Origin: an uncultured Clostridia bacterium
GTDB taxonomy: Bacteria > Bacillota > Clostridia > TANB77 > CAG-508
Direction: 5' to 3'
Length of the DNA: 64,000 bases
Assembly: GCA_944389125.1 (NCBI GenBank)
Contig: CALXLF010000012.1
Location: forward strand, 60 to 64,059
Under the pieces are notes generated by a model. It worked only from the letters and a program-made list of their open reading frames with translations. It searched no databases and was not told the origin of the DNA. Below, piece by piece: positions 1 through 60,714 of the stretch. The position numbers were made by a program, and so were the translations under genes. Each line of letters begins with the position of its first letter. Position 1 is the stretch's first letter.

Positions 1-187
1 CGCCTTGGCAAGGTTGCATTTTACCACTAAATTATACCTGCATTTTTCATATTATATTTTATGCTTTATTTTTTATAAATTGCAAAAAAATAGAACTTCT
101 TTTAATTAAAGCATTTCTATAATAACAAAAATATATTTAAAAGTCAAGAGTTTTTAATCAAAATGCCATTTACTAATTAAAAATTAA

Positions 188-42342: not shown

Positions 42343-43333
42343 ATGATGGAACGAAAAAAGATAGTTATTTTTGGTGGAGGAACTGGAACAAGTTATGTTT
42401 TAAAAGGTTTAAAATATTTCCCAGTAGATATAACAGCTGTAATCACTGTTTCTGACAGTGGTAGCTCAACAGGAAGATTAAGAAAAGAATTTTCAACTCC
42501 GGCAGTAGGAGATATTAGAAAGGTTTTAAGTAATCTATCTACATTACCTGACGAAATTAGAGATGTAATGGAATATAGATTATCAATACCAGGAAACGAT
42601 TTAGATGGTCATGCAATGGGAAATTTAGTTTTAACATCTTTACTTAAAGAAACTGGAAGTCTAAAAACAAGTATAGAATATTTAAGTAAATTACTAGATG
42701 TAAAACATAAAGTACTTCCACTTTCAGAAGATTACTTAACTTTAATGGGAGAAACTATTGATGGAGAAATCATTGAAGGTGAAGATACAATAACTAAAGC
42801 TAGAAAAAAATATAAAAGATTTTTCTATAAAGAAAACCCTCATGTAGTACCAGAGGTATTTGACAAAGTAAAAGATGCAGATTTAATTATTTTAAGTATG
42901 GGAAGTCTTTATACAAGCGTTTTACCTCATTTACTTTGTAAAGATTTAGTTGAAGCTATTAGAAAATCAAAAGCAAAAAAAATGTATATCTGTAATGCAA
43001 TGACTCAACCACGGTGAGACAGATGACTTTGGTGTTAGTGATCATGTTAATTTCTTGGAAAGTTATTTAGGAAAAGGCACAATAGATAGCGTAATTGTTA
43101 GTACAACAGAAATACCTGAAGAGATGTTAAAAAAATATGAAACTGAAGAACAAAAAAATCTTGTTAAAGTAGATTATGAAAATATGAGAAATGCTAAATA
43201 TGAAGTAATAGAATCTGATTTACTTACTACAGTTGATGGAACTATTAAACACAATAGTTTAAAACTTAGTTCAATTATATTTTTCCAATTAATGAACAAC
43301 AATGAAGATGAACAGAAAAAAATTAAATTTTAG
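42343..43333 (+). pseudogene. yvcK: yvcK (gluconeogenesis factor/CofD-like, UPF0052) interrupted by a +1 frameshift near 43017
   Basis: GGGTG...VSDSGSSTGRLR...GDIRKV N-terminus; ...CNAMTQP R* then GETDDFGVSDHVNFLESYLGKGTID continues in the +1 frame (extra C in caacca[c]ggtgag). Confidence 0.65.
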
Positions 43334-43377: not shown

Positions 43378-43758
43378 TTAACCAACATTTCCTTCGGCAA
43401 ATTTTTGAATAATTCCTAATATTGCTGAAGCTGCAAATAATATAATTGCACCAACAATATAAATTGTTGAATTTTTCTTAATTTCAGCTTTACCTTCTGG
43501 TGAAGCAGCTATGTATTGAATAGCAAGTACTATTAACATGATAATAGCAACACCAGCACCAATAATTCTAGCAATATAGATTATAGAACCTATAATATTA
43601 GAAACTGCATTTGAAGCACCACTATTATCTTCTTTACCTTCAAAACGATTTAAATCAACAGATAAATTTGCAGCTGATACAACTTGTGTAAAAGCTGTTA
43701 CTAACATTACTGCTACCATTAAAGCTACTACTATTTTCATAACTTTCTTTGCTTTCAT
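43378..43758 (-). CDS. Orphan VirB2/TrbC-like pilin candidate (126 aa), fourth paralog, 9 kb away from the T4SS-like operon
   Basis: Signal peptide ...VVSA; PEGKAEIKKNSTIYIVGAIILFAASAILGIIQKFAEGN nearly matches 33903..34283 product. Confidence 0.55.
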   Translation of the reverse strand: MKAKKVMKIVVALMVAVMLVTAFTQVVSAANLSVDLNRFEGKEDNSGASNAVSNIIGSIIYIARIIGAGVAIIMLIVLAIQYIAASPEGKAEIKKNSTIYIVGAIILFAASAILGIIQKFAEGNVG

Positions 43759-45361: not shown

Positions 45362-45435
45362 AAAAAAACGAAACAAACCACTTGACAATGCAATTTTATC
45401 GCAGTATAATATTGTCTGTGCTTAAAATGCATTAT

Positions 45436-45511
45436 CGAGGTGTGGCTCAGTTGGTAGAGCGCGTGGTTTGGGACCATGAGGTCGCAGGTTCGATCCCTGT
45501 CACCTCGACCA
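45436..45511 (+). tRNA. tRNA-Pro (anticodon TGG); integration target of the IME
   Basis: Acceptor CGAGGTG/CACCTCG, D arm GCTCAGTTGGTAGAGC, anticodon loop TTTGGGA, T arm GCAGGTTCGATCCCTGT, ACCA. Confidence 0.85.
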
Positions 45512-45567
45512 TCTTAAATGTCTGAAAATATTGATTTTCAGGCATTTTTAATTTTTATAAATCTTTA
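45500..45567. repeat. Left 68-bp direct repeat (att site) covering the last 12 nt of tRNA-Pro plus 56 bp downstream
   Basis: Identical 68-mer tcacctcgaccatcttaaatgtctgaaaatattgattttcaggcatttttaatttttataaatcttta recurs at 55739..55806. Confidence 0.85.
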
Positions 45568-45868
45568 TAAATTTCTATAAATTTTAGGTAGTTTTTTATA
45601 TTCACTCCCAAATCCACTCCCCATAATTTATTTTTTTTTTTTAAATTGGGAGTGAATATATATATTTCATGAAAGCATTTATATATAAATAAAAAGTAAC
45701 ATTTTTTTAGCTTTATTCACTCCCCAAAACTCTCCAAAAATATTTTATAATCTTTATTAATATTTATTATATTTTTTAAATATTTTATTTTAAATATTAA
45801 AAATATATTTTATTTTTTTATACTTTTTTGGAGAGTAAATTAAATTAAATTCACTCCCATTTATAAAA

Positions 45869-47065
45869 CTATCTTTCTGATTTTTCATTTGTAGGTAAAT
45901 CTAATAATTCATTAGGTAATAATGAATTATTTAAATAATATTCATTTACTTTGTTTAATTCAGTCTGTTTATATTTGTTAAATACAGATGTATATGTGTT
46001 TAGTGTTATACTAATATCAGTATGTCCCATTAACCTTTGAAGAGCAACTGCTCTCATACCTGCTTCAATACACCTTGTACCATAAGTATGTCTTAAACTA
46101 TGTGTCGTAATATCTGTAATATTAAAATTGTCTCTTAATATTTTCTTTAATGCAATATTTGCATTTCTTGGGTCAACTAAATTTCCTTTTGAACTTAAAA
46201 ATAATTGATTATCTTTATTATTTTTTCCTTGTTCCATTTGTTCAATAATAAATGGGTTTATAAATTGTGGTATTGGTAAATCTCTTATTCCCGCATAAGT
46301 TTTTGTCGTTTCTCCCATAATTACTTTTTCATTTTTATCAGTGGTTAATGTTTTATCTACTCTTAATAAATTATGTTTTAAATCTATATCCATATTTTGT
46401 AATGCTAAAACTTCTCCTATTCTTAATCCCATATACATTTGTATTAAAAAAGCATTTTTATATGGACATTCTTTTAATGATTTATTGACTAAAAAATCCG
46501 TTAATAATTGTTGCTCTTCTACCTCTAAAGCTCTAACAACTTTATCTTTTTTATTACTTTTAGGTTTAACTACATCTATCATTGGATTTCTTGCAATATA
46601 TCCTTTATCCATTGCATATTTAAAAGCTTGTGAATATTGTTCATAAATTTTTTTAATATAAGAATTGCTATAATCTTTTAAGGTATTAAAATATCCTTGC
46701 AATTCTTCTGCGTCAATTTCTTCAATACTTTTATGAGATATATAAGATTTCTCTATTACTTTTATTGTTTGCTCTATTCTTGTAAATTGTCTTTCTTTTA
46801 TTAAATTCATATCTAATTTTTTCTGCAAATTTACTCTCATAAGTTCATTTATTGGTATCCCATTATTTTTTATATATAATGGGTTTTCTTTTTGATACAT
46901 AAGCGTACTTAAATATTTTTTTCCTTCTTCTTCTGAAGAAAAAGCCTTTGTCTTTCTTGATGTTTTTCCTGTATTAAAATCTGTAACATACCTTTGCACT
47001 ATCCATTTATTTTTACTTTTATCAAAAAATAAACTACCTGCACCAGAACCCGATTTTTTAGGCAT
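45869..47065 (-). CDS. int: Tyrosine site-specific recombinase (phage integrase family)
   Basis: C-terminal R...HSLRHTYGTR...LMGHTDISITLNTY catalytic motif. Confidence 0.85.
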   Translation of the reverse strand: MPKKSGSGAGSLFFDKSKNKWIVQRYVTDFNTGKTSRKTKAFSSEEEGKKYLSTLMYQKENPLYIKNNGIPINELMRVNLQKKLDMNLIKERQFTRIEQTIKVIEKSYISHKSIEEIDAEELQGYFNTLKDYSNSYIKKIYEQYSQAFKYAMDKGYIARNPMIDVVKPKSNKKDKVVRALEVEEQQLLTDFLVNKSLKECPYKNAFLIQMYMGLRIGEVLALQNMDIDLKHNLLRVDKTLTTDKNEKVIMGETTKTYAGIRDLPIPQFINPFIIEQMEQGKNNKDNQLFLSSKGNLVDPRNANIALKKILRDNFNITDITTHSLRHTYGTRCIEAGMRAVALQRLMGHTDISITLNTYTSVFNKYKQTELNKVNEYYLNNSLLPNELLDLPTNEKSER

Positions 47066-47077
47066 AGCACATCACAC

Positions 47078-47365
47078 TTACACCCTTCTATCCATTTTCC
47101 ATATCAAATAAGCAAGTAATGTTACTGTTTTAGGCTTTCCTAAATTAACAGAAGGAAAATCATCTCTTTTAAATATTTGATTTGCCATATTTTCTCCCAT
47201 TTTTAAGTCTTTTGCTACATCTTGTACTGTTAAATTTATAAAAGGATTTTTTATTTGCTTAATAGCTTCTATTATCATTAATTCTTTTAGTGTCAATTTC
47301 TCTTTTGTATCAATTACTTTTTCTTTTACATCATTCATATTTTTATTACCTTTCTTTATCTTCAA
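47078..47365 (-). CDS. Small HTH DNA-binding protein, excisionase-like
   Basis: 95-aa ORF immediately upstream of int; LTVQDVAKDLKMGENMANQIFK HTH-like segment. Confidence 0.45.
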   Translation of the reverse strand: MKIKKGNKNMNDVKEKVIDTKEKLTLKELMIIEAIKQIKNPFINLTVQDVAKDLKMGENMANQIFKRDDFPSVNLGKPKTVTLLAYLIWKMDRRV

Positions 47366-47627
47366 AATTTGTATTTTTTGCTAAACATAAACCTTCTATA
47401 AATGCTTCAACTTCATTCCATGATTTAAAACAACTTTTATTATCTATGGAGTACCAATCATTTCTACCTAAATCGTTTTTATCAACTATTGCAATTGCCT
47501 TGTTATATGTATAAATACTTGAAGTTGTTAGTAGCAATATTTTTTTGTCACTATTAGACAACATATATTCATTTAGTCCATTAATTCTTTTTTGAATCTC
47601 TGTTTTATTCATATAATTACACCCCAT
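47346..47627 (-). CDS. Hypothetical IME protein (93 aa)
   Basis: ORF in operon with overlapping neighbours. Confidence 0.4.
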   Translation of the reverse strand: MGCNYMNKTEIQKRINGLNEYMLSNSDKKILLLTTSSIYTYNKAIAIVDKNDLGRNDWYSIDNKSCFKSWNEVEAFIEGLCLAKNTNFEDKER

Positions 47628-48138
47628 TTTTTATAATTTTATTTAATAGCTTTTCTATTTTAGTAAGAACATTTATAATTTTTGTATTATATTCTGAAAA
47701 TTGCTGATTTTTCTCATCAAAGCTTTTCTCATATTGTTTAGCTATCTCTTTAAAATTAATTGGTCTAATTTTAGTTTTAATATTAAAGCTTTTATTATTT
47801 AAATCATTTAAATACCAAATAATCTCTTCTTGAGATAAGCTTTTAAATTCTCTCTCCTTTTTATCAATATTAACTAAAATAAAATCTCCTCCTATTTTTC
47901 CTAAAATTAAAGCTATATTAGGTGTCATATCTTCCATTAACTCTTTATTGTTACAAACTATAAAGGCGCTTTCATAAGGTATTATAATTAGTTTTTTATT
48001 TATAATTTCTCTTTTTAGTTTTTGCATATTATCAATAATTTTTACTTCTGGATTTTTTTGTGGCTCTTTATATAAAACTCTAATAACATTTGTATTTTGA
48101 GATTTAGTAATAATTTTATCTAAAGTCTTTTCTTTCAT
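47617..48138 (-). CDS. Hypothetical IME protein (173 aa)
   Basis: ORF; overlaps neighbours by few codons. Confidence 0.4.
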   Translation of the reverse strand: MKEKTLDKIITKSQNTNVIRVLYKEPQKNPEVKIIDNMQKLKREIINKKLIIIPYESAFIVCNNKELMEDMTPNIALILGKIGGDFILVNIDKKEREFKSLSQEEIIWYLNDLNNKSFNIKTKIRPINFKEIAKQYEKSFDEKNQQFSEYNTKIINVLTKIEKLLNKIIKNGV

Positions 48139-48530
48139 ATTTTGTTATTACCTTTCTTAAGTTTACTTGCCTTATAAAGTAACCTTAAATTATTTTTGAA
48201 GTGCATTATAGCTTTATTTCTTAAAGATATAACTTGATTCTTTTGTAATTTTAATCTTTTACAAATATCGTTTAATCTAACATTTTCAATATATGATAGA
48301 TATAACACTTTTCTTTCAAGCAACGGGACTGTTTTCATTGCTAAATAATAAGTTTCATCTGTAAAGATATTTTCCAAATGGTTTATATTTACATCAGAGT
48401 TATCAGCTTCTTGCATAGATTTTTGATATAAACTATTTTCAAGTATCTTCTTTATTTCTTCATTAGGCATTTGTACATCATTTGTAAAATTAAAATTTTG
48501 ATTTTTCATTTTTCTAAAACTCCTTTTCAA
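48135..48530 (-). CDS. Sigma-70 region-4-like HTH regulatory protein
   Basis: LNDICKRLKLQKNQVISLRNKAIMHFKNNL resembles sigma region 4.2 HTH (Tn916 Orf7-like regulators). Confidence 0.4.
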   Translation of the reverse strand: MKRSFRKMKNQNFNFTNDVQMPNEEIKKILENSLYQKSMQEADNSDVNINHLENIFTDETYYLAMKTVPLLERKVLYLSYIENVRLNDICKRLKLQKNQVISLRNKAIMHFKNNLRLLYKASKLKKGNNKI

Positions 48531-48709
48531 GAATTTTAGATTTCCGGAAATCTTATTTATTCGAACTACCTAAAGTTTAGCATGAATTTTAAACATAATC
48601 GCAAAAAAGTATCAAAGTAGTTCAAAATGGTTCAAATTGGTTCACGTGTAAAGCATTTATGCTTTACAAGCACAAATAAAAAAAGAACTGCTGATAATTT
48701 AGCAATCCT

Positions 48710-49105
48710 TTAATCTTTATATTTTAATACTATGATACTAATAAACCTACTTGGCGAAAGATAAAAAGCATCAAATCGTAAATTTAGATATTTTTCAAAT
48801 CCATTTTTAGCTTTTATATAATCAATTCTATAAAGAGAATTTTTAATATTACTTTTTATATTCTTTTTCTCATAATGCTTATCTTTTATAAAAAGATTTA
48901 ATATCTCTTTATATGAGTAATCATACAGATTATTTAAAACTATAAATTCTATTATTTCTTTAATATATATTGTGCCTTTACTAGCAGGATTTAAACCTAA
49001 CTCAAAAAGCATAGTATATAATAAATATGAAACTTCTACTTTATCTTTAGTACAAGTATCATATTCACTTTTCATATAACTATCCTTTCTATTAGATTTA
49101 ATCAT
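48710..49105 (-). CDS. Hypothetical IME protein (131 aa)
   Basis: ORF. Confidence 0.35.
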   Translation of the reverse strand: MIKSNRKDSYMKSEYDTCTKDKVEVSYLLYTMLFELGLNPASKGTIYIKEIIEFIVLNNLYDYSYKEILNLFIKDKHYEKKNIKSNIKNSLYRIDYIKAKNGFEKYLNLRFDAFYLSPSRFISIIVLKYKD

Positions 49106-49309
49106 TTTATAGGTATATTGTATTCTAATTATGTAAACAATTCAAAGGATAGCTAAATTGCATTATATGCAACTTTATTTGCACTCCATGCAACTTTTTA
49201 ATAAAAAATAGTTATTTTAAGCAAAAATCAATCAAATATATTAATTAAAATAATAAAATATTTTAAAAAGTACAAAATGTTGCATTTTACGCAACATTTA
49301 AAAATATAA

Positions 49310-49345
49310 AAAAGGAGACTACTATAGTCTCCTTTCTTTTTGGTC
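49310..49345 (+). terminator. Rho-independent terminator
   Basis: aggagactactatagtctcct hairpin followed by ttcttttt. Confidence 0.55.
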
Positions 49346-49696
49346 TAGCAACCTCCACCACCACCGTGGAAATGTTACGAACTTCTTTTGCATTTTTTTC
49401 ATAAGTTGAACGTCCCCTTTCATTAGTCTCTATTTTCTTGTAGCATAAAGTAGAACATCCAACTTACCGGAGGTTCTAAAGATTGAGCCTTCGCACCAGC
49501 TCAACTATAACTTTATGTTACAATCAAGCTTATGCTTGAGCAAAAATCTTTTTAGACCTTTACCAAAATAGGTGTTATAAATATATAATATCATGTAAAG
49601 TCTTAGAAATCAAACTTTTCAAACCTTTTAAGGTTATTATATTGATTAAATTATAAAAAAATAGTATAATAAATATTGTTAAAGGAGGGTTAAATT

Positions 49697-50401
49697 ATGT
49701 CTAACTTTGATAGTAAAGATTTTGGGGAAAGACTTAAAAATTACAGATTAAAAAAAGGATTAAGTCAAGAAAATATTGCTAAAGCTCTACATAAAGATAA
49801 AGCAACTATTAGCAGATACGAAAAAGGAGAAATTTTACCAAATGTTAGAGATATTAGTATAATTTGTGAGGAATTAGGCATATATGAAGCCGATTTATAT
49901 GGAAATGAAACTAATAGAACAACACAACATAATAAATCAAGAAACCCTTTTAATACTGATAAATTATATGTTTATTTTAATGCCTATAATTTTAGAACAA
50001 AAAAATTTGCTCCTGATAAGTATATATTAGAATTAGAGCAAAAACAAAATATATGTAAGGCAAAATTTGTAGATTATCACGATAAAAGAATATATTCAGA
50101 AGGATATTTAATATGCAATGATGAAATTGCTTTTGTTGTAATGGAAAATTACAAACCAACCAGCAGTCGTGTAGATGTTGCAGTTCTTGAAATAAATATT
50201 TGCAATGGAACTGACGGACTAATGCTTGGCGGTTATTTTGGAACAAATGCAAAATGTGAACCTAGTTTAAGAAAATGCTACTTTTCAAAGAAAAATATTG
50301 AATTTACAAAAAAAATGTTTGAACAATTAAAACTAAATGAAAATGAACAAAAAATATTAAATAATCAAAATGCTTTGTATTTGGATATATTTAATGTTTA
50401 A
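49697..50401 (+). CDS. XRE-family HTH transcriptional regulator with C-terminal domain
   Basis: N-terminal LKKGLSQENIAKALHKDKATISRYEKGEILP HTH_3 pattern; RBS AAAGGAGGG. Confidence 0.7.
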   Translation: MSNFDSKDFGERLKNYRLKKGLSQENIAKALHKDKATISRYEKGEILPNVRDISIICEELGIYEADLYGNETNRTTQHNKSRNPFNTDKLYVYFNAYNFRTKKFAPDKYILELEQKQNICKAKFVDYHDKRIYSEGYLICNDEIAFVVMENYKPTSSRVDVAVLEINICNGTDGLMLGGYFGTNAKCEPSLRKCYFSKKNIEFTKKMFEQLKLNENEQKILNNQNALYLDIFNV

Positions 50402-50456
50402 TAAATAAAAGATATCAAAAGTATAAATTTGATATCTTTTATTTTAACTTATTAAA

Positions 50457-51120
50457 TTAATTAATCTTCCCATCTTCAATTTTAATAATTCTATCTGCCA
50501 TTTTAGCAATTTCCATATTATGTGTAATCATTACGATTGTTTGTCCATATTCTTTATTTGCTTTTTTTAGCAACTGTATTACTTCACTACTTGACTTTGT
50601 ATCTAAATTTCCGAGTTGGTTCATCTGCTAAAATAATTTTTGGGTCTATCATTAAAGCTCTTCCTATTGCCACTTTTTGTTGTTGTCCTCCTGATAGTTC
50701 ATTTGGCAAATGTTTTCTTCTTTCCTCTAAATTTAAAAATTTTAATATTGATTCTAATTTATTCTTATTTACTTTCTTTTTATCTAACTCTACTGGTAAG
50801 GTTATATTTTCTTCTACATTAAGAGTAGGTAATAAATTATAAAATTGATATATAATTCCTATTTTTTGCCTTCTTAAAATGGCTAAATCTTTTTTACTCA
50901 TCTCATATATATTTTTATCATAAAAATATACTTTTCCCTCTGTTGGTGGCTCTAAACCTGCCATAGTATGTAATAATGTTGACTTTCCACTTCCAGATGG
51001 CCCTATTACTGCTATAAATTCTCCCTCTTCTACTTCAAGAGAAATATTATTTAAAGCAATTACTTTTGCTTCATCTTTTCCATAAATTTTGGTTACATTT
51101 TCAACTTTTAAAATTTTCAT
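50457..51120 (-). pseudogene. ABC transporter ATP-binding protein with +1 frameshift after the Walker B/D-loop region
   Basis: GPSGSGKST Walker A, LSGGQQQ signature, ILADEPT then RKFRYKVK*; shifted frame continues [51 protein letters not shown] (extra C in gaaccaact[c]ggaaat, ~50600). Confidence 0.7.
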
Positions 51121-51135
51121 ATCTTTTTTTCCTTC

Positions 51136-53433
51136 TTATTTATTTTTCACAAATTTTCCTGAAAGTAATGTTACTGTTATTGATATTACCAATAATAATA
51201 AATAGAAAATAGCTATTTTTCCAAATGGCACTAATAATTCATTTATTCCATATAAATTATTTATATATTTTATTATTAAATATATTATTGGAATTGACAA
51301 TATTATTGATATTATTGCTGATTTTACAAATACAAATAGGCTCTCATATATTAATACTTTATTTATGTTTTTATTAGTTGCTCCTATTCTATTTAGTATT
51401 TTAAATTCATCTATTCTTTCTTGCAAACTTGCATTTATTATATTTATTCCTGATACAACTCCTATTAATACTAGCGCTACTAATACTATCCTTAATGCCA
51501 ACTGAACTATTTTTAAATATATTATTGTTTCTTGTTGATCTAATGTATAAAAACCTGCTGAAAGATTTATACCTTGTTCATCTTGAACATTTTTTATATA
51601 AGTTGAGAAGTCTACCACATCATCACATCTTATTCTAACAAAATAACTGTCTATTTGGTAACTATCTGGTGAAATATTATTCCAAGCTTCGTTATAATTT
51701 TTTTGGAATTTATCAAACATTTCCATATTAACAAATACAACCGGTTTGCTTCCTGTGTCTTTAAAGAAGTCAAAATAATCATCTACTAATATAAATTTTC
51801 CTTTGAAAGTTTGATTATCTAAATTATTTATTTCTTCATTACCTGTAGTTCCAGAAATATCAACAAACTGTATATCGTCTATATTATATTTTTCATCAAA
51901 TACATTTCTATATTCACGTTTGTTAGCAGAATAATTATACGTTGAATAAGTATTATAAAATATAATATCACCATAATTTCCATGTACTTCTTTTATATAA
52001 TCATTATATACATCATCTTCTAATCCAATTATAGTCATATACATAAAAATTTTATCATCAACTTTATATGTGAAATCATTTAATTTAGTTTCTAATACGC
52101 TTGTGTTAATTCCTTCTTGTGGTTCTATTAATCCAGTTACCCATTCTTCACCCTTATATTCAATGTATTCTACATTACTTCCAGACTCTTTTTCATACTC
52201 TTTTAATATTGATTTATAGTCTATATCATCTTCAAATTTTATTTCAAATTGCGCATCAAAATCATATTCTAAAACAGTATCTGAAATTTTAGTTTCATAC
52301 TCTATATATGTACTTACACAAACATATCCTGTCATGCATACTGTTAATAATATTGTTAAAACTATATACTTACTTTTATTTCTTTTTAAATTTTTTAATG
52401 CTAATTTTCCTTCTACTGAAAATAATTTTTGAAATATTGATGTTTTTCCAATCTTTTTTAATTTTTTATTATTTTTTATTGCTGATATTCCATTTATTTT
52501 TGTCAATGATAATATAATTGCAAGATATATATTATAAAAAACAAGTATTATTAATATTACAAAATAGATTACTTTTGGAATTAATCTAAAACTATATATT
52601 GTTGATTTTAATATGTTATTTAATAAACTTAAGATAAGTTCAGCTCCTATAAATGATAGTATTATTCCTATTATAATCCCAATTACACCTATCACCGTTC
52701 CTTCAAAAGTTGCAATTTTTAAAAGTTGATTTTCTGTTGCTCCTATACTATTTAATACTGCATATTCCTTTTTTCTCTCATTCATTGTCACATAAAAATT
52801 ACTATATAATATTATTAAAAATATTACTAAAAATATTATTGCTACTAAAACTATAAAGAAATTTATCACATAATTCATATTTACTCTTGCTGTACATACT
52901 GCAGTATTATTTGGCCCATTCGCTAAATATACATCCATTAATCCATTTAAATTTAATATTTGTTGATTAAACAAAACATTATCTGCTAAATAGCTATTAG
53001 ATGGTTTTAATGTTTCTATTATATCATTTACATCTGTACAAGTATCTTTTGCATTTTTAAATTTTATATATATATTTATATAACTTGCATTTTCTAATTT
53101 ATTGCTTTCTATATTTTCTATTTCTTTTATTTTCTCTTCATCATCTATTTGAACATAAATTGTATCTACATATTCTTTTTCTTTTATTATATTTATATAT
53201 TCTAATGGCACATTATTCATTTCTAAATGATATCCATTATAATCATCATATTCTTTATTTATCGCCTCAGTCATTCCAGACTTAATACTTGATATTAATA
53301 ACATCGTTGTAAACAAAAGAAATGAACCTAATATTATTGATATTGTTATATATAAATATCTTTTTTTATATTTCTTTAAACTATTAATAGCTAACTTATC
53401 CTCTATTTTCATTTGTTTTATCCCCCAAAACAC
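51136..53433 (-). CDS. ABC transporter permease, FtsX-like (two FtsX 4-TM domains, 765 aa)
   Basis: Large extracytoplasmic loops between TM bundles; adjacent to ABC ATPase. Confidence 0.65.
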   Translation of the reverse strand: MFWGIKQMKIEDKLAINSLKKYKKRYLYITISIILGSFLLFTTMLLISSIKSGMTEAINKEYDDYNGYHLEMNNVPLEYINIIKEKEYVDTIYVQIDDEEKIKEIENIESNKLENASYINIYIKFKNAKDTCTDVNDIIETLKPSNSYLADNVLFNQQILNLNGLMDVYLANGPNNTAVCTARVNMNYVINFFIVLVAIIFLVIFLIILYSNFYVTMNERKKEYAVLNSIGATENQLLKIATFEGTVIGVIGIIIGIILSFIGAELILSLLNNILKSTIYSFRLIPKVIYFVILIILVFYNIYLAIILSLTKINGISAIKNNKKLKKIGKTSIFQKLFSVEGKLALKNLKRNKSKYIVLTILLTVCMTGYVCVSTYIEYETKISDTVLEYDFDAQFEIKFEDDIDYKSILKEYEKESGSNVEYIEYKGEEWVTGLIEPQEGINTSVLETKLNDFTYKVDDKIFMYMTIIGLEDDVYNDYIKEVHGNYGDIIFYNTYSTYNYSANKREYRNVFDEKYNIDDIQFVDISGTTGNEEINNLDNQTFKGKFILVDDYFDFFKDTGSKPVVFVNMEMFDKFQKNYNEAWNNISPDSYQIDSYFVRIRCDDVVDFSTYIKNVQDEQGINLSAGFYTLDQQETIIYLKIVQLALRIVLVALVLIGVVSGINIINASLQERIDEFKILNRIGATNKNINKVLIYESLFVFVKSAIISIILSIPIIYLIIKYINNLYGINELLVPFGKIAIFYLLLLVISITVTLLSGKFVKNK

Positions 53434-53648
53434 AAAAAATTATTTTATACATTTTGTATTATATCAAATACAAATTTAGCTTTCAACAAATTTTAACGCT
53501 AATTAAATTTTATTTAAATTATAAAAATAGTAAAACTTTTATTTTTAAAATAGGAAAAAGGGAACTAACATCTTAGTTCCCTCAAAACAGATACAGGTGT
53601 GCTATTAACAGTTAACTATTAGTTACAGTTTAAGTGAAACAGTCAGTA

Positions 53649-54122
53649 TCAATATCCAAACGTTAAAACAACTCTAGCCGATGTAGAATTATCACCACCA
53701 GAATTGGAAACAGTAATAGTCCAATTTCCACTAGTAGCGGTAAAATCCGGACTCTGAACGCTTCCATCAGATCTTACTTTAAATGTTTTAACAGTTCCAT
53801 CAAGCTTAGTAGCTTTGAAAGTAACAGTTTTAGAGTTTCCATAAACCTGGCATCGTACACTTTTCACATTTTTTGCAAAATACACCGACGCCACCTGTGT
53901 TCCACTCTTGAGACTGCAGCTTTCATTCACAATACAAGCGTTGTCCGTATTGTGAACATACCGTGAAGAAATTATTGTTTCATCATCAGAAGCAGTAATT
54001 TCTGACGAACCAGAATTTACTGGAATTTGAGAAGTTTCTGCCGCAAAAGCTGCCACTGAAGAAGTAGCAATCATACATACCGCTATAGCGGTGGTTACAA
54101 TTGATTTAAAGAGTTTATTCAT
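53649..54122 (-). CDS. Small secreted beta-rich protein (signal peptide), IME cargo; paralog of 56063..56524
   Basis: MNKLFKSIVTTAIAVCMIATSSVAAFAA signal; C-terminus ...TITVSNSGGDNSTSARVVLTFGY resembles ...SVTVTIGIY of the paralog. Confidence 0.5.
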   Translation of the reverse strand: MNKLFKSIVTTAIAVCMIATSSVAAFAAETSQIPVNSGSSEITASDDETIISSRYVHNTDNACIVNESCSLKSGTQVASVYFAKNVKSVRCQVYGNSKTVTFKATKLDGTVKTFKVRSDGSVQSPDFTATSGNWTITVSNSGGDNSTSARVVLTFGY

Positions 54123-54305
54123 AATTTTTTCCTCCATAAAAATAATTGTAAGCACACCTATTTCTGTTTTATGCTAAATGTACATATCGTACTCTAGCAT
54201 AAAATATTATACTATTTCATTTTAATGATGCCAATATTTTTAAAGTCATATTTATTTTTTTTAAATAATAACTTCTTATTTTTATAATATCATCTATTCT
54301 CTAAA

Positions 54306-55247
54306 TTACTTTATAAAATTATTAACAATCCTTTTAAAACTATCAACTGGAAACTCAAATAAATATTTTACTACTTCACAAGTTTTTGAAATATATTTTT
54401 TTAACCTATTATTTTCTCTTTTTAAATTTTCATTTTCAATTTTTAAATTAATATTTTTATTTCTTAATTTTTCAAAATTATCAATTGCTTTATAAGATTT
54501 ACTTAATTGTAATTTTAATTTATTGACATATTTTATTAATTGTTGATTTTGAGCTATTATTAATGCTGTATTTTTAGTATCAAAAGGTTTTATTTTTTCA
54601 TTTTCTAATTCATATTTAATATTATCATAATCTGTTACTTGCTTTAGTTTTTCCGTACTTAAATGTTCAATTTTTCTTTCTTTTCCTCTTTCTAAATCAA
54701 AACCTGCATTTTTTATATATTCATAAAAACTATCTTGAAGTTGTCTATAACTGTCTTTTCCTTTCCAATATTCTGAACAAGCAATTTTTTCAAACTTCTT
54801 TTCGCTTTTTTTGTCTGTTTTATGAATTACAGGAACAAAAACCAAATGTAAATGCGGTGTACTTTCGTCCATGTGAACTTTTGCAGATATAATATATTTT
54901 TCTCCTAAATCTTTATATTGAGAAACAAAATTATACGCAGTTTTAAAATATCTTTTTGTTTCTTCTTCTCCAATTTCTTCAAAAAATTCTCTATCTGATG
55001 TGATTATAAATTCACATACTACATTAGTTGTTTTAATAATTCTACCATGTAAATTATTTTCTTGAATTAGTTTTTTTAATGCATTTAAATAAGTTGTGTT
55101 GCATGATTTTATAGAGTAATTTTTTATTGAATTATTTTTATTGATATCTTTATTAGAATAATTAGTATTTTTTCTCTCGTTATGTTTGTATAATCCTGCT
55201 AAATTATCTTTTTTATAATTGGCATTTCTTATTATTGCATAACTCAT
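54306..55247 (-). CDS. mob: MobV-family (Mob_Pre) mobilization relaxase
   Basis: MSYAIIRNANYKK N-terminus; KVHMDESTPHLHLVFVPV (HxDE..PHxH metal-binding motif) of MobV relaxases. Confidence 0.8.
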   Translation of the reverse strand: MSYAIIRNANYKKDNLAGLYKHNERKNTNYSNKDINKNNSIKNYSIKSCNTTYLNALKKLIQENNLHGRIIKTTNVVCEFIITSDREFFEEIGEEETKRYFKTAYNFVSQYKDLGEKYIISAKVHMDESTPHLHLVFVPVIHKTDKKSEKKFEKIACSEYWKGKDSYRQLQDSFYEYIKNAGFDLERGKERKIEHLSTEKLKQVTDYDNIKYELENEKIKPFDTKNTALIIAQNQQLIKYVNKLKLQLSKSYKAIDNFEKLRNKNINLKIENENLKRENNRLKKYISKTCEVVKYLFEFPVDSFKRIVNNFIK

Positions 55248-55738
55248 CTTTATTTTTCCTTTTTATAAAGATAGCCTTCGAAGGCTTAACTTAAATTAAA
55301 AATACCACCTTTGCATTTGCTTAATTAAACTTTTTACGAGTTTCTAACACACTAGAAACTCAAAATTGAGTTTCGTGTGATTAAGGGAAATTCTTTCCCC
55401 TAATAACCCTTTTAGCACAATTTAATTTTATATTTATTAATATTAATAAATACCATAAAATAATAAATCATTTTATTTAAAATTATAATTGTGATATAAA
55501 AATATACTCATATTTTTATATTGCAGTTTATCTAAAAAAGATAAACTGTTGAGCAACCTTTCTCGGTTTCTCAAACTCTTCCTCGGCAATCTATAAAAAT
55601 ACAAAATTAAATTTTAGTATTTTTATAGATTTATAGCATATTACAGCAATTTTCTAAAATTTATTCTACTCCCTAATACACACCCATACAAACTACATAA
55701 ACATTGATACTACTATAATACAAGTTCTAACCTAGTTC

Positions 55739-55806
55739 TCACCTCGACCATCTTAAATGTCTGAAAATATTGATTTTCAGGCATTTTTAATTTTTATAAA
55801 TCTTTA
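55739..55806. repeat. Right 68-bp direct repeat (att site) of the IME
   Basis: Perfect copy of 45500..45567. Confidence 0.85.
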
Positions 55807-56062
55807 GGTGATTTTTTATGAAATTATGGAACATTATTAAAAATTCATTAAGAATATCACTAAATTTCAAACAAAAAATAGTCTAAATATCACAAAAAGT
55901 TCATTAAAATAAACAAACCCTAAAGATTTGTTTTGTCTGCTTTGCAGTTAAAAATGGGACAATAGAACCGTCCCCTTGTCCCATATTATACTTTAGATGT
56001 TATTTGTTGCTAACGCAACTATTAACATCACAAGAGTGACTTTTTTTCAAAGGAGGAAAAAT

Positions 56063-56524
56063 ATGACAAAAAAATCAAATATTGCAAAGCGGTTATTTGC
56101 AATTATTTGTGCAACAATAATGTTATTTACCGCTTCTAATACTGCCTTTGCTATAGATAACACCGAAACAACTATTGAAAAAAATGTTACATCAAATTCT
56201 AATAGTTCTATTCAACCTTATGGTTATGTTGGAAATGGTACTATAACTGTTGGAGGACATCAAACACAGTCATTGTACATAGGCGATAAAACAGATGCTC
56301 AATTTTGGTCAACAATTCTGTTCAGAACCTCATGTTCTACAGACCAAGGCGGTGTTAATATTAGCATTTATAATGGCTTAAACCAATTTAAGACTAGTTT
56401 TGTTATGGGTTCTAATGATGAATACACTAAAACAATATTCTTGCTTGGAAGTGGTCCGTACAAATTTGACATTACAAATTATACATCAAATGCCTCTGTA
56501 ACAGTAACAATTGGTATTTATTAA
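56063..56524 (+). CDS. Small secreted beta-rich protein, paralog of IME-borne 53649..54122, located just outside the right att repeat
   Basis: RBS AGGAGG; signal peptide ...TAFAIDN; shared C-terminal pattern. Confidence 0.5.
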   Translation: MTKKSNIAKRLFAIICATIMLFTASNTAFAIDNTETTIEKNVTSNSNSSIQPYGYVGNGTITVGGHQTQSLYIGDKTDAQFWSTILFRTSCSTDQGGVNISIYNGLNQFKTSFVMGSNDEYTKTIFLLGSGPYKFDITNYTSNASVTVTIGIY

Positions 56525-56667
56525 GTCAAAGAAATGGATAAAATTCTAATTAGTATAAGTGAAATTTAACATTTTAAAATAACAGTAAATTGTCACTCTT
56601 GTGGAGCTGGTGCACAAGCACCAGCTTTTATTATATAAATATTCTTGCAAACTTATTAACATTTCAT

Positions 56668-58191
56668 TTAAATTCTCCAATTTGCAACTGGGAATGTTTT
56701 GTATTTTTGTTTATATTTTGTTAATAATTGTTTTTCTATTTTTTCACTATTATCTACTTCTATCCAACAAAGGCCTAATTGCTTATTGTTTTGTATTTGC
56801 CATATAGCTCTGCCACCTCTATGTGAAGCATTTTTTCCATATCCATAATCTATGTATTCTTGTAATCTTTTTCTAAGGCCATCTTCTCTTTCGGCTTTTC
56901 CAATGTATAAAATTGTTTTATCTCCACTATTATATTTTCTTATTAAATCAGCCTCATTATATAAAAGACTTTTTCCTTGATATTCTGTTTTTATATTTCC
57001 AATATCATCTGTAAATTGAATAGGTGTATTTTCTAAGTTTACAATAAAATAAACGCCATTATTATTTGGAATTTTATCATAATTATTTTTAATTTCTGAT
57101 ATCGTATAAATTTTTATATTTTCTACATTACTTATATCTCCAATAAGTTTTTTAATCTCTCCAATTACTCTATTATATATAACTGGTGATGAATAAGTCA
57201 TATCATTCATTTGTGATATTGCTTTATTATTTAAATTTAAAATTTCATCAAATTCATCACACAAACTAATAATATAGTCATATTTCTTTAAAGTTTGCTT
57301 CCAAGTATCTTTTATACTTTCTATTCCATAATATAATCCAAGTAGTCCTCCTGTGCAGGCTGCAACTGTATCTGTATCATCTCCTAAATTTACAGCTTTA
57401 AGTATAGTTGTATTATAATCATTTGAATTAAGAAATAACCACATTGTAGCCTCTAAAGTATTTACTACATAACCACTTGTTGAAATATCATCTACATTTA
57501 CATTTGATATATCATATTTTAATATTCTATTATATCTTTCAATTGTATCATTACTAAACATTTTATAATTTAATTTTTGCAATTTTTTATAAGCTTCAAA
57601 TTTTTCATTTCCATTTAATAATTCTAATACAAAATTCACATATATATAACAACCTAATATGCTAATCTCATGTGCATGTGTTATTGAAGATACTTGTTTT
57701 ACAATATTATAGATTTCTTTACAATCTTTAATATCTTTGTAGTAGATATAATAAGCGATTGGAAGTATTCTCATTAGTGAACCATTACCATTAGAATATT
57801 CATTATTCTCACCACAATTACTTGCATCATCTAATTTCATTTCATATTTTCTAAGTGCTTGTAAAGTTGTTCTGCCAACGTCAAAAGTTTCATTAGTTGC
57901 TGTGTATTCTGCATTTCTAAGCCAATTTAAAAATTTAATAGCCATATCATTACAATTTATTGTTTTTGTACATATAATGCTATCAATAGTTGCAAGTGTC
58001 ATTGATGTATCATCAGACCAAGTTCCTGCTGGTACATTATATGTTCCATCTCCTATCATATCTGTAATAGGATATCTTTTTAATTCTTCTCTTGACTTAA
58101 ATTCTGCAGGTACACCTAAAGCATCTCCAATAGAAAACCCTATTATTCCATCTTCTGATTTTTTAACTCTATTTTCATCTAAATTATCCAT
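56668..58191 (-). CDS. ADP-ribosylglycohydrolase (ARH/DraG family) domain fused to ~200-aa C-terminal domain of unknown function
   Basis: IGFSIGDALGVPAEF N-terminal ARH signature and ...NLGDDTDTVAACTGGLLGLYYG second metal-binding block; 507 aa is much longer than the ~300-aa ARH fold. Confidence 0.65.
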   Translation of the reverse strand: MDNLDENRVKKSEDGIIGFSIGDALGVPAEFKSREELKRYPITDMIGDGTYNVPAGTWSDDTSMTLATIDSIICTKTINCNDMAIKFLNWLRNAEYTATNETFDVGRTTLQALRKYEMKLDDASNCGENNEYSNGNGSLMRILPIAYYIYYKDIKDCKEIYNIVKQVSSITHAHEISILGCYIYVNFVLELLNGNEKFEAYKKLQKLNYKMFSNDTIERYNRILKYDISNVNVDDISTSGYVVNTLEATMWLFLNSNDYNTTILKAVNLGDDTDTVAACTGGLLGLYYGIESIKDTWKQTLKKYDYIISLCDEFDEILNLNNKAISQMNDMTYSSPVIYNRVIGEIKKLIGDISNVENIKIYTISEIKNNYDKIPNNNGVYFIVNLENTPIQFTDDIGNIKTEYQGKSLLYNEADLIRKYNSGDKTILYIGKAEREDGLRKRLQEYIDYGYGKNASHRGGRAIWQIQNNKQLGLCWIEVDNSEKIEKQLLTKYKQKYKTFPVANWRI

Positions 58192-58463
58192 ATCTACTAT
58201 TCACTCCAACTATATATTAACTTACAACTTTAATGCTTTTTTAAGTCAAAATATCCCTATTTTTTTTTATTGTTTGACAACAATTTTGTTTAATTATATA
58301 ATATGAGAATAAGGACCAAAGCTCACACATGAGCTCTGGAATCCCTTTGATTAAGAAATATCTCAATTCAAATGGCGGCTTACCACTTAAGAGATTGGGA
58401 TATTTCTTCTTTTTTCCTATTGCAAAATCTATGATGAAAATCAAACAGATTCTCTGTTGACCA

Positions 58464-58763
58464 TTATTTTCTTAGTAATAGTTTAAATACATTCCTATAA
58501 ATCAAAATAAAATCTTTATCTTTTTCTAGGCTATAAATATGATTTTCAAGCATTTTTTCTGCTTTAATAGCACATGATAATATCATAAAATATTCTTCAT
58601 AATCATTTGCAGCATAAGCTAATGCTTTTCTTTTACTAAGTATTTCTAGACATTCTTTAAGAATTAGGACTGTTATATCCCTGTCTTCTCTTACCTCACT
58701 TTGGTATAAAAATATTTTTAAGTTTCTTTCGAAACAATTTATTATCAAATTAATATTTTTCAT
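58464..58763 (-). CDS. Hypothetical small protein (99 aa)
   Basis: ORF only. Confidence 0.3.
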   Translation of the reverse strand: MKNINLIINCFERNLKIFLYQSEVREDRDITVLILKECLEILSKRKALAYAANDYEEYFMILSCAIKAEKMLENHIYSLEKDKDFILIYRNVFKLLLRK

Positions 58764-58999
58764 ATTAATTCCTCCCTCTTATAATATTTTTTATTACAAG
58801 AGATCCAAAGCTACATGGTAAGCCATTTCCTTATTCACTTTTCAATGTTCATATAAAATAAACATTATACAGGTATTTTAACATAAAACTATAATTTCTT
58901 CAATGTTTTACTTTTTAGGAAAAAAAGATATCTATTTGTACATTTTTAGCAAAAAAAGAAGCTTGTATATTTTTTTCAAGCTCCTTTTTTTATACTATA

Positions 59000-59467
59000 T
59001 TAAGCTTTATCTTTAGTTTTTACATCTCTATCTTTTCTTGCCAATTTATTATGGTAAATAAATATAGGTAAACATGTAACTACTGCTGCTATATCTGTTA
59101 AAAGATTAACAATATTAATATTTAGCTCTCTTTCTTGATTATTATATAAACTACCTGATACATCTTTTTCTGGTAATAATACATCTAATCCAACACTAAA
59201 TGCTGAAATTGCTCCTGTTATAATTACTATAAGAGTTATAATTAAAATTGAATATATGTATACGCTTCTCATTATATTATCAAAATCTTTTTTAGTTTTA
59301 TTTCTTTTGGCTATAGCCTGTACTATAAGTACAATAATTGCAATCGGAACAATAAGCATTAATAAACCTAAAAATATTATTAAAATTGCCATATTATCTT
59401 TCCTCCACTTTTTTATCTCTAAAAAATTTTCTCTATTTTTCACTATCGCTTGATTTTTCTTTTTCAA
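59000..59467 (-). CDS. Small membrane protein (2-3 TM)
   Basis: ORF with hydrophobic helices. Confidence 0.4.
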   Translation of the reverse strand: MKKKNQAIVKNRENFLEIKKWRKDNMAILIIFLGLLMLIVPIAIIVLIVQAIAKRNKTKKDFDNIMRSVYIYSILIITLIVIITGAISAFSVGLDVLLPEKDVSGSLYNNQERELNINIVNLLTDIAAVVTCLPIFIYHNKLARKDRDVKTKDKA

Positions 59468-59780
59468 TCATATTCCAATGATATTTATACATTATTGCAC
59501 CAATAACTACTACAACTAATGACACCACTGTATTTTTAATTTTTTCTGTTTTATAATTTTCCCTTTCAATCTCATTTCTCTCTTCATCTTGATAGTCAAA
59601 TGGTTCATTATATGATGAATATTCATTATACTCATTATAATCATATTCATAAAACAAATATGAATCTGGAAAAAAATAATAGGCTATATTATTTACTGCA
59701 GATATTATTCCAGCAACAATCATAGCCAAAGTTATAAAAGCCACTATATAAAGATAAATAATTCTTACATTATTGCTCAT
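59433..59780 (-). CDS. Small membrane protein (115 aa)
   Basis: ORF; two TM helices. Confidence 0.4.
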   Translation of the reverse strand: MSNNVRIIYLYIVAFITLAMIVAGIISAVNNIAYYFFPDSYLFYEYDYNEYNEYSSYNEPFDYQDEERNEIERENYKTEKIKNTVVSLVVVVIGAIMYKYHWNMIEKEKSSDSEK

Positions 59781-59952
59781 TGATATTTACCTCCTTTTTT
59801 ATTTTCGATAATATATTACCATAATAGCACTTTTTATTCAACTAATCCAATACAGAAAGGAACTCTTAAAAAATGCATCCTAAATAATCCCAAAAATTTA
59901 ATTTGTTTAATCAACCTGCTTTTCTAAAGTGTCCCCAAAAGATTGTTAAATT

Positions 59953-60714
59953 TTAATCAGTAACATAATTAGCTAATTCTATTGCAATATCAAAGTGTAG
60001 AGAATCATGCTGCGTACCTTTTAGCTCATTTTCTTTATGTCTTTCATCCCATTCTGGCGCATCTAATAAATCACCACTTGTGAAAAACATATATAAATTC
60101 AAATTTCTAAAATCACACATAGCTTGAAGTCCTGAACATTCCATTTCTACTGATATACAACCATCATCTTTATGTTTTTTAAAATTATTTTTAGTCTCTC
60201 TATAAAAAGCATCTGTAGTCCATGTCTTTCCTTTAACATAAGGAATATTATTTTCTTTCATAAAATTTGCAACTATATCTGCATTTTTTACTTTTATATA
60301 ATCAGAAGCTGGAACATAATGATAAGATGTTCCTTCATCACGATAAGCTTCTGTTGGTACCATGACTCTTCCATGTGCAATCTCTTTATTTAAACATCCA
60401 CTTCCTCCAAAAACTATATATTTATCTGTCTTTATTTCTTCAAGAGTATCTTCAACAGTTCCAACACAAGCAGGAGCACCTACATATGTTTTATAAAATG
60501 CAAACTTTTTACCTTTATAGTCAATTTGATAAATTGGTGTAATTCCAGTAACAGATTTAAATTGTGCTATCTTTTTACAATCATAATTTTCAAGCACATA
60601 TTTCTCAATTATGTATGAAAATGTAACAATACAAGCGTCTACTACTGGAGTATTTTCTTTTGGATGAGGATTTATTATTGCTTCTGATTTATCATCAAAA
60701 CTATCTATGATCAT
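59953..60714 (-). CDS. Nucleoside phosphorylase (PNP/UDP phosphorylase family)
   Basis: GGSGCL...ISVEMECSGL pattern typical of PNP_UDP_1 fold. Confidence 0.6.
   Translation of the reverse strand: MIIDSFDDKSEAIINPHPKENTPVVDACIVTFSYIIEKYVLENYDCKKIAQFKSVTGITPIYQIDYKGKKFAFYKTYVGAPACVGTVEDTLEEIKTDKYIVFGGSGCLNKEIAHGRVMVPTEAYRDEGTSYHYVPASDYIKVKNADIVANFMKENNIPYVKGKTWTTDAFYRETKNNFKKHKDDGCISVEMECSGLQAMCDFRNLNLYMFFTSGDLLDAPEWDERHKENELKGTQHDSLHFDIAIELANYVTD

Follow-up and report, generated by a model that had tools for sequence, protein, structure and literature searches.

A probable MOBV1 integrative mobilizable element with a predicted pMV158-type transfer origin at the tRNA-Pro gene of an uncultured Clostridia bacterium

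Introduction

Integrative mobilizable elements (IMEs) that combine a MobV relaxase with a tyrosine integrase are a described class, whose members insert at the 3′ ends of tRNA or other conserved genes, exchange modules, accrete in tandem and carry ATP-binding cassette (ABC) transporters as cargo (PMC5704250). Such elements are abundant in gut Clostridia, and 29 MOBV1 elements have been counted in four Faecalibacterium genomes (PMC12084326). Here we describe a 10.2-kb segment at the end of a tRNA-Pro gene in a 64,000-nt stretch of contig CALXLF010000012.1, from an uncultured Clostridia bacterium; we refer to the whole stretch as the window, and all positions follow its numbering unless another locus is named. 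The segment is very probably an ordinary IME, with an integrase, a MobV relaxase and a pMV158-type origin of transfer (oriT). It belongs to an already described class, the MOBV1 IMEs, and leaves the current understanding of mobilization unchanged; its value lies in being a cleanly delimited member, with an oriT and nick site predicted to the base, from poorly known uncultured low-GC gut Clostridia.

As in the MobV IMEs of Firmicutes, such as IMESag-rpsI of Streptococcus agalactiae and the MOBV1 IMEs of Faecalibacterium, the integrase lies at one end and MobV with oriT at the other, pore genes are absent, integration at a 3′ end is accompanied by direct repeats, and small regulators, an ABC cargo and modular exchange are all found (PMC5704250, PMC12084326). 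The window element differs from these in its tRNA-Pro target within uncultured low-GC Clostridia (the window has 22–40% GC, mostly ~27%), in a relaxase that is 32–40% identical to characterised MobV proteins, in its uncharacterised backbone genes (DUF3846 and proteins of 88, 121 and 124 aa) and in being known from sequence alone. NBU1/NBU2 and Tn6031 (the latter at tRNA-Pro) are likewise tyrosine-integrase IMEs that restore the tRNA 3′ end and are mobilized in trans (PMC5704250); they come from another phylum, the Bacteroidetes, and the likeness is one of organisation only.

An att-bounded segment at the 3′ end of tRNA-Pro

A first-pass annotation of this DNA had proposed a tRNA-Pro-integrated mobilizable element with a tyrosine integrase and MobV, in which perfect 68-bp repeats flank a 10.2-kb segment and one repeat overlaps the tRNA-Pro 3′ end. 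The repeat search bore out these coordinates (Table 1), returning two direct copies that are 100% identical over 68 nt and lie 10,239 bp from each other; no other repeat in the region approaches this length. The left copy covers the last 12 nt of an intact tRNA-Pro(UGG), whose 3′ end is TCACCTCGACCA with CCA encoded; the repeats regenerate an intact tRNA-Pro and also supply its terminator. The segment is integrated and bounded by attachment (att) sites at a specific target, as expected of an IME sensu Guedon et al. 2017, and its junctions recur in other samples. It also has its own site-specific recombinase, an intact tyrosine integrase in which the catalytic R, K, HxxR, H and Y are conserved in alignment and whose closest solved structure is that of Tn1549 Int (6EMY, 1.3e-13). 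All four exact matches of TTCACTCCC in the 64-kb window fall inside the 258 bp between attL and int, and we regard these copies as candidate arm-type integrase binding sites in the P′ arm.

The element further combines a relaxase and an oriT with the absence of a complete mating-pore module, the third attribute of an IME. No VirB4, coupling protein or pore gene was found within it, its ABC ATPase is its sole Walker-A protein, and nothing inside matches a type IV secretion system (T4SS) family; the proposal that the element lacks a mating pore of its own was therefore upheld by both the family scans and the Walker-A scan. Every architectural point of the first-pass annotation was supported in this way, and each gene on its list is present, including the regulators, the secreted protein and the frameshifted ATPase, in which we located a 1-nt insertion. 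All architectural attributes of an IME that can be assessed here are found; excision as a circle and transfer by a helper conjugative element would be expected of such an element.

The relaxase and its predicted origin of transfer

The relaxase matches Pfam Mob_Pre with 139.4 bits (cutoff 25.5) across profile positions 1–195 of 196 and the NCBIfam MobV equivalog with 130.8 bits (cutoff 100), and its residues 2–200 align to the sequence of the MobM crystal structure 4LVI (1e-31, 199 residues). It has 5,446 homologues at E ≤ 1e-5, the best 120 of which are all at least 73% identical. Relaxases of the MobM/MobV type use a histidine and not a tyrosine as nucleophile (PMC5863519), so that the relevant test is the presence of His22 together with HxDExxPHxH. 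Both are shared with pMV158: MobM His22 is conserved as residue 22, in KHNER, and the motif reads HMDESTPHLH. The first-pass annotation had made the assignment depend on a "Tyr/His triad", of which the histidine part stood, while the tyrosine premise was wrong (PMC5863519).

The experimentally defined oriT of pMV158 reads GCACACACTTTATGAATATAAAGTATAGTGTG/TTATACTTTA (PMC3105389); it contains three overlapping inverted repeats (IRs) and is nicked in the coding strand where the IR3 hairpin ends on its 3′ side (PMC5863519). We regard the oriT of the window element as identified, just upstream of mob and on the mob coding strand as in pMV158, with a predicted nick in the minus strand between 55348 and 55347; it falls inside the interval suggested for it beforehand (55250..55740). 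Folding with DNA parameters gives a hairpin closed by CACAC...GTGTG, whose loop has 4 nt and whose right arm contains a small bulge (−9.8 kcal/mol, compared with −7.5 for pMV158); this hairpin terminates exactly at the predicted nick, as does pMV158 IR3. A second inverted repeat, with a 9-bp stem and a 6-nt GTGTGT loop, spans the nick. The two origins thus have in common a CACAC...GTGTG outer stem, an inner 7–8-bp hairpin with a 4-nt loop, a TAGTGTG/TTA box and the 9-bp/6-nt-loop repeat across the nick. Unlike pMV158, the window element is integrated and is not a rolling-circle plasmid, it has no Rep gene or recognised single-strand origin, and its stem sequences are unrelated to those of the plasmid (they covary).

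The box TAGTGTGTTA is invariant in six sequences, namely the window, four relatives (relaxases 42–86% identical) and pMV158, and in each of them the 5′ part forms a hairpin based on CACAC...GTGTG that ends at the predicted nick. The stems differ in sequence among the relatives yet keep their pairing, that is, they covary; MAFFT misaligned the covarying left arms, and pairing was checked sequence by sequence instead. The pMV158-type layout, including the TAGTGTG/TTA box, is kept with relaxases only ~35% identical to MobM, which is useful for the annotation of oriT in metagenomes.

In the mechanism that we propose, the integrase, probably helped by the small helix-turn-helix (HTH) protein encoded beside it, would recombine attL and attR within the 12-nt TCACCTCGACCA core and release a circle. 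MobV would then extrude the oriT hairpin, nick the minus strand after GTGTG at the position given above and lead the single strand through a helper's coupling protein and pore, the helper being either an integrative and conjugative element (ICE) or a plasmid. In the recipient, MobV would reclose the strand and the integrase would reinsert the element at tRNA-Pro, with the XRE and sigma-like proteins presumably controlling both excision and transfer.

Other strains narrow the recombination core

Copies of the element in other samples were found by exact-protein look-up in several gut metagenome assemblies (loci from other assemblies are given L numbers). The element occupies the same site in at least two long contigs, L003 and L004 (98.5% identical), and the 10,063-bp contig L005 holds almost the whole element (window 45677–55750). 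In L003, attL keeps the 56-bp trailer with three single-nucleotide polymorphisms (SNPs) relative to the window (single SNPs are seen in the attL of other strains), and at attR, which reads ...CTAGTTC-TCACCTCGACCA-AAATTAAAAACTAACC..., a different terminator follows the 12-nt tRNA end, leaving only 78 bp between this core and the ADP-ribosylglycohydrolase gene. The full 68 bp was rejected as the att core on the strength of this sister strain, which carries the same element and shares just 12 nt between its attL and attR. Since only the 12-nt tRNA end is common to both, strand exchange would occur within it; going by this comparison, the recombination core must comprise at most 12 nt of the 68-bp repeat, and the other 56 bp is extra, strain-specific homology between the P′ arm and the right flank of the window strain. 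This means that a long perfect repeat can overstate the core (here 12 of 68 nt), a caution for the delimitation of genomic islands.

The same tRNA-Pro has been a recurrent integration hotspot, as indicated by second copies of the tRNA end and by mob, int or HTH homologues beside it in other species. In loci of two other species, L028 (core copies at 126 and 1374) and L034 (720 and 1954), both oriented with tRNA-Pro on the plus strand, the last 13–23 nt of the tRNA are repeated ~1.2 kb downstream, and the stretches between the repeats look like small remnants of the cis-mobilizable element (CIME) kind. An identical full-length tRNA-Pro occurs in 32 species, all of them uncultured metagenome-assembled genomes (MAGs), mostly from animal or human gut, and none conspecific with the window; they are labelled Clostridia, Clostridium, Lachnospiraceae and Candidatus Scatovivens, with single records of Clostridiaceae, Bacillota and Anaeroplasma.

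The right flank of the window strain differs from that of L003, in which 911 bp (55751–56661, the last 56 bp of attR plus 855 bp) are replaced by an unrelated 78 bp; the window-type flank is also present in other samples. This segment may be the native tRNA trailer and flank of the lineage, or else the stub of an older related element. The latter would amount to tandem accretion, with the 56 bp beyond the attR core and the 855-bp ORF segment as the left end of a decayed CIME beside which the present element integrated, a possibility that we entertain only tentatively. It would account for the unrelated L003 flank, in which the 12-nt core alone is common, and for the 100% identity of the 56 bp between attL and attR in the window although these differ at three positions between strains; the repeat-flanked 1.2-kb remnants at the same tRNA-Pro in other species agree with it, and IMEs commonly accrete beside decayed elements (PMC5704250). 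However, the putative remnant is not closed off by a second core copy ahead of the ADP-ribosylglycohydrolase gene, and the secreted-protein open reading frame (ORF) of the segment shows no detectable resemblance to the secreted protein of the element itself (E = 1) and no tblastn match among the loci compared. In L035, where the tandem model predicts an att junction between oriT and int, the available 3.3 kb contains no second core copy. Moreover, the tRNA-Pro trailers of other species resemble the 56 bp, with compensatory changes in the stem, so that these 56 bp may be nothing more than a trailer native to the lineage and copied into attP.

Contigs L005 and L006 end exactly at 55750; we considered this as a sign of a circle or of a strain mixture and set it aside, as window-type attR contigs occur in the same samples. 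Further to the right, 56662–60000 is 5% divergent between the window strain and L003 and 61517–64000 is 99.8% identical, which points to a recombination tract.

Evidence for and against present-day mobility

Several observations weigh against reading the segment as a functional IME. The contigs and collections searched yielded neither an empty attB nor a circular attP junction, whether by exact-protein look-ups of both flanking genes and the relaxase or by a 44-nt att pattern run against GTDB species genomes, JGI metagenomes and IMG/VR: the search returned occupied sites or contigs broken at the repeat only, and the 44-nt pattern is absent from the GTDB species representatives. Every contig that reaches the site carries the element, all called copies of the ATPase share its frameshift, and the element could thus be fixed and inactive in the species. 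The window shows no helper element, we identified no function in replication or as a single-strand origin, and the excisionase assignment has the position of the gene and a sub-threshold HTH match as its whole basis.

These points could also be read as a fixed, decaying island that entered once, has been inherited vertically and no longer excises or transfers, its repeats being fossils of integration. The occupied sites, the ATPase frameshift that is identical in all samples, an integrase-proximal half that has diverged between strains about as much as the flanks and the single SNPs in the attL of other strains are all compatible with such an island, which we nevertheless consider unlikely. 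The integrase, mob, oriT and both att sites are intact, and so few strains have been sampled that a missing empty site is weak evidence. The pattern of divergence between the window and L003 is also uneven: the cargo/mob half (50000–55750) differs at 3 positions (~99.95% identity) and mob and the HTH gene are 100% identical, whereas the integrase-proximal half has ~150 differences and the flanks are 1–9% apart. Recent exchange fits this mosaic better than vertical inheritance does, and an exchange of the near-identical half is possible on these figures. Counts of synonymous and nonsynonymous differences between the strains were too few to show selection.

Relatives of the element indicate that the family is, on the evidence of its varied insertion sites, mobile over evolutionary time. 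In L056 the same backbone, with an integrase 58% identical to that of the window, is found at a tRNA-Met together with an intact ABC ATPase and a RelB/YafQ toxin-antitoxin pair; no direct repeats were found for it there, the contig ending before attR. In L052 (4521–13499), a relaxase 86% identical to that of the window and the same oriT lie in a serine-recombinase element that splits a Mn-catalase/cotJC gene, which, from its gene content, appears as a clear case of module swapping. Tn4451/Tn4453 and Tn6215, mobilizable transposons of the MobV kind, carry a large serine recombinase (TnpX) and are not known to be tRNA-targeted. Like the window element, they reside in clostridia, encode a Mob/Pre-family relaxase and depend on a helper (PMC5704250); the L052 relative resembles them more closely than the element of the window. 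The large serine recombinase of L052 is broken into three reading frames, and the element also carries an AAA-ATPase/PDDEXK_9 gene.

A neighbouring T4SS-like operon

Outside the element, the window contains a 34-kb chromosomal T4SS-like operon with VirB2-, VirB3-, VirB4-, VirB6- and TraC/TrsD-like genes (Table 1), which also encodes a 235-aa pilin-like membrane protein, several giant surface proteins and a cell-wall hydrolase. For membrane-channel components (VirB3-, VirB6- and VirB8-like) the matches are weak at best. The VirB4 of the operon matches NCBIfam CD1110 (4.6e-60) and Mbov_0397 (3.6e-57), both below the equivalog cutoffs, and reaches at least 79% identity in each of the 120 best protein clusters, of which the few with a source name are annotated as Clostridia MAGs. 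In another species the operon, there with a pilin array of six to seven genes, has ordinary chromosomal surroundings, in a third, related species the operon lies directly upstream of tRNA-Pro, and distant relatives (VirB4 ~40% identical) occur in similar operons on large plasmids of Clostridium botulinum and C. beijerinckii. Judged by this distribution, the operon represents a chromosomal system kept throughout the clade. That the element lies near it is therefore a matter of synteny and not evidence of a functional link, and co-residence is the default for any element in these genomes. Loci considered with it are L026, L067 and L068.

No coupling protein (VirD4/TcpA) is encoded in the 64 kb, where the only Walker-A proteins are VirB4 and the ABC ATPase of the element, and no coupling-protein, P-loop or relaxase Pfam family is on record for the genes called in the 10 kb to the left of the window. 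Scans of the operon and its flanks detected no relaxase family, the MobV of the element being the only relaxase in the window, and the homologous operon of another species has no coupling protein or relaxase within 10 kb on either side. The first-pass annotation had reported a T4SS-like operon without relaxase or coupling protein 11 kb away and called its co-residence notable; the operon is real and lacks both, at 10.8 kb, and the co-residence is explained by synteny. Chromosomal, relaxase-less T4SSs with VirB2 arrays, as found here, are also known from Patescibacteria, where they are thought to have been co-opted for non-conjugative roles, and Gram-positive T4SS classes are stated to lack VirB2 homologues (PMC12102498).

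Mobilization of the element through this VirB4/pilin system, a link that the first-pass annotation implied, appears very improbable to us, whether it dispensed with a coupling protein or drew on one encoded elsewhere. The two loci are 10.8 kb apart, with a further pilin gene 1.7 kb from tRNA-Pro, VirB4, the VirB2-, VirB3- and VirB6-like genes and the cell-wall hydrolase are present, and distant homologues sit in similar operons on large Clostridium plasmids, all of which would suit such a route. Yet the standard MobV pathway cannot run through the operon because there is no coupling protein, nor is there a second operon ATPase in the 64 kb or in the Pfam annotations of the 10 kb to its left. 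The clade-wide chromosomal conservation and the synteny with tRNA-Pro make co-residence expected by default, the relaxase-less pilin-array systems of Patescibacteria are read as non-conjugative (PMC12102498), the characterised MobV mobilizations listed in PMC5704250 all use helpers with a VirD4 coupling protein, and the relaxase has close relatives whose integration contexts are quite unlike this one. A wider version, in which the clade-wide chromosomal system serves as the mating pore for the abundant MobV elements of these gut Clostridia, as a "domesticated" public conduit that may have a non-canonical or distantly encoded coupling function, is likewise very improbable. The conserved chromosomal T4SS-like system with its pilin arrays is a more interesting object than the element and merits an analysis of its own.

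At the distal end of the operon, a 1,897-aa protein (948–6641, minus strand) combines a GDSL lipase with a C-terminal phage-tail-lysozyme domain; it could be a component that attacks the cell wall or envelope, or an effector. To the left of the window (L059, 10843–15800), a tRNA-Gly(GCC), with a partial tRNA-like duplicate at about window positions 1–46, borders a second small integrated element that encodes a tyrosine integrase of 428 aa, an excisionase-like protein of the HTH_17 family and a protein weakly matching REP_ORF2-G2P (rolling-circle Rep-like). The T4SS-like operon is therefore bracketed by two tRNA-integrated elements.

Gene content of the element and its surroundings

All genes of the element lie on the minus strand except that of the XRE regulator, a putative element repressor. 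Compared with 72,556 plasmids by megablast, the element as a whole had no match. The 86-aa HTH protein encoded directly upstream of int is a putative excisionase or directionality factor, to judge from its position and its HTH match; it does not resemble the HTH_17 excisionase of the nearby tRNA-Gly element, and its gene is conserved in the related element L056 and beside tRNA-Pro in L038. The cargo is, according to its family matches, an FtsX/MacB-type ABC efflux or immunity system, whose ATPase is inactivated by a 1-nt insertion, together with a secreted protein. Alignment of both DNA and protein to the intact 220-aa, 88%-identical L056 homologue places this insertion, a single C, at 50613, directly after the Walker B ADEPT motif, and the truncated 177-aa product is called in every other sample that has the gene. 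That the segment is instead a prophage remnant or a phage satellite resembling the phage-inducible chromosomal islands (PICIs) is scarcely credible. Its integrase and its XRE repressor-like and sigma-like regulators do have PHROG matches, and phages too typically integrate at tRNA genes, but the segment revealed neither capsid, terminase, portal or primase genes nor any related to packaging, megablast gave no match among 50,697 phage records, and a bona fide MobV relaxase with its cognate oriT is present.

Table 1 Features of the element and of the window, with the predicted att junctions and oriT oligonucleotide (positions in window numbering; TM, transmembrane segments)
Feature	Position	Strand	Evidence or remarks
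tRNA-Pro(UGG), intact, integration target	45436-45511	+	ARAGORN; Rfam RF00005 67.3 bits
attL, left 68-bp copy	45500-45567	+	last 12 nt of tRNA + terminator hairpin 45516-45547 + ~20 nt
Predicted minimal att core TCACCTCGACCA	45500-45511	+	sole stretch common to attL and attR of sister strain L003
Candidate arm-type integrase sites, TTCACTCCC cluster	45601-45858	.	3 direct, 1 inverted, one 1-mismatch copy
Tyrosine integrase, 398 aa	45869-47065	-	PF00589 7e-24; PHROG integrase 2.7e-62
HTH protein, 86 aa, directly upstream of int	47078-47338	-	sub-threshold HTH_6 match only
Backbone protein, 88 aa	47346-47612	-	no family match; same-size, same-position gene in L056
DUF3846 protein, 173 aa, conserved backbone	47617-48138	-	PF12957 4.9e-8; also in L056
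Sigma-70 region-4-like regulator, 124 aa	48135-48509	-	sub-cutoff NCBIfam sigma-70/ECF matches; PHROG sigma factor match
Backbone protein, 121 aa	48710-49075	-	no significant family; same-size, same-position gene in L056
XRE-family HTH regulator, 234 aa, divergent	49697-50401	+	PF01381 1.4e-12; PHROG repressor families
ABC transporter ATPase, pseudogene, frames of 177 aa + 55 aa	50457-51120	-	PF00005 4.8e-36
Duplicated FtsX/MacB-type ABC permease, 765 aa, cargo	51136-53433	-	PF02687 1.2e-23, two stretches; sub-cutoff NCBIfam ADOP/MacB/LolCE
Small secreted protein, 157 aa	53649-54122	-	signal peptide ending AFA/AE, from sequence; weak Ig-like match only
MobV (MOBV1-type) relaxase, 313 aa	54306-55247	-	PF01076 1.7e-40; NCBIfam MobV
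Predicted oriT, pMV158 type, ~100 nt upstream of mob	55338-55380	-	TCACAC-GAAACTCA-ATTT-TGAGTTTC-TAGTGTG/TTAGAAACTC
attR, right 68-bp copy	55739-55806	+	repeat search; junction also present in two other samples
Strain-variable segment outside attR	55807-56661	+	secreted-protein ORF of 153/175 aa (56063/55997-56524)
T4SS-like operon, chromosomal, outside element	948-34690	-	ends 10.8 kb from attL
VirB6-like polytopic protein, 385 aa	27807-28964	-	Mbov_0396/MMCAP2_0566 ~1e-5 to 1e-6, well below cutoffs
VirB4-family ATPase	28974-30974	-	P-loop_TraG, DUF87, AAA_10 domains
TraC/TrsD-like protein, 429 aa	in operon	-	counterpart in another species carries PF26593 TraC-like
VirB3-like protein, 114 aa, two TM	in operon	-	no family match
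Three VirB2-like pilins	33578-34690	-	PF18895, up to 6e-14
Further (orphan, fifth) pilin gene	43378-43758		1.7 kb from tRNA-Pro
Predicted attP junction			...CTAACCTAGTTC-TCACCTCGACCA-TCTTAAATG...CTTTA-TAAATTTCTATAAATTTTAGG
Predicted window-type attB			tRNA-Pro + 68 bp + GGTGATTTTTTATG
Predicted L003-type attB			tRNA-Pro + AAATTAAAAACTAACC
oriT oligonucleotide around predicted nick			TCACACGAAACTCAATTTTGAGTTTCTAGTGTGTTAGAAACTC; predicted cleavage after GTGTG

A perfect TTGACA-17-TATAAT promoter (12/12 in the promoter scan) precedes tRNA-Pro at 45382–45410. Other than this the scan found no excess, with 96 promoters compared with 93.8 expected from shuffled AT-rich DNA, and the Rfam scan returned two tRNAs and nothing else. 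Between the operon and the element, a CofD/YvcK-like gene (42343–43017 and the next ~280 bp) appears to be split into parts of 224 aa and 92 aa, which are called separately in all related contigs (L001, L044-L049) as well; this could be a conserved frameshift or a two-gene arrangement. GC content peaks at 0.40 (35001–36000) and 0.37 (39001–40000) over a background of ~0.27, the two peaks lying over an AIM24-family gene (34879–35712) and a 610-aa ORF (38517–40349), respectively. The region of the 610-aa ORF is the most divergent between strains, with ~70 differences/kb in L001.

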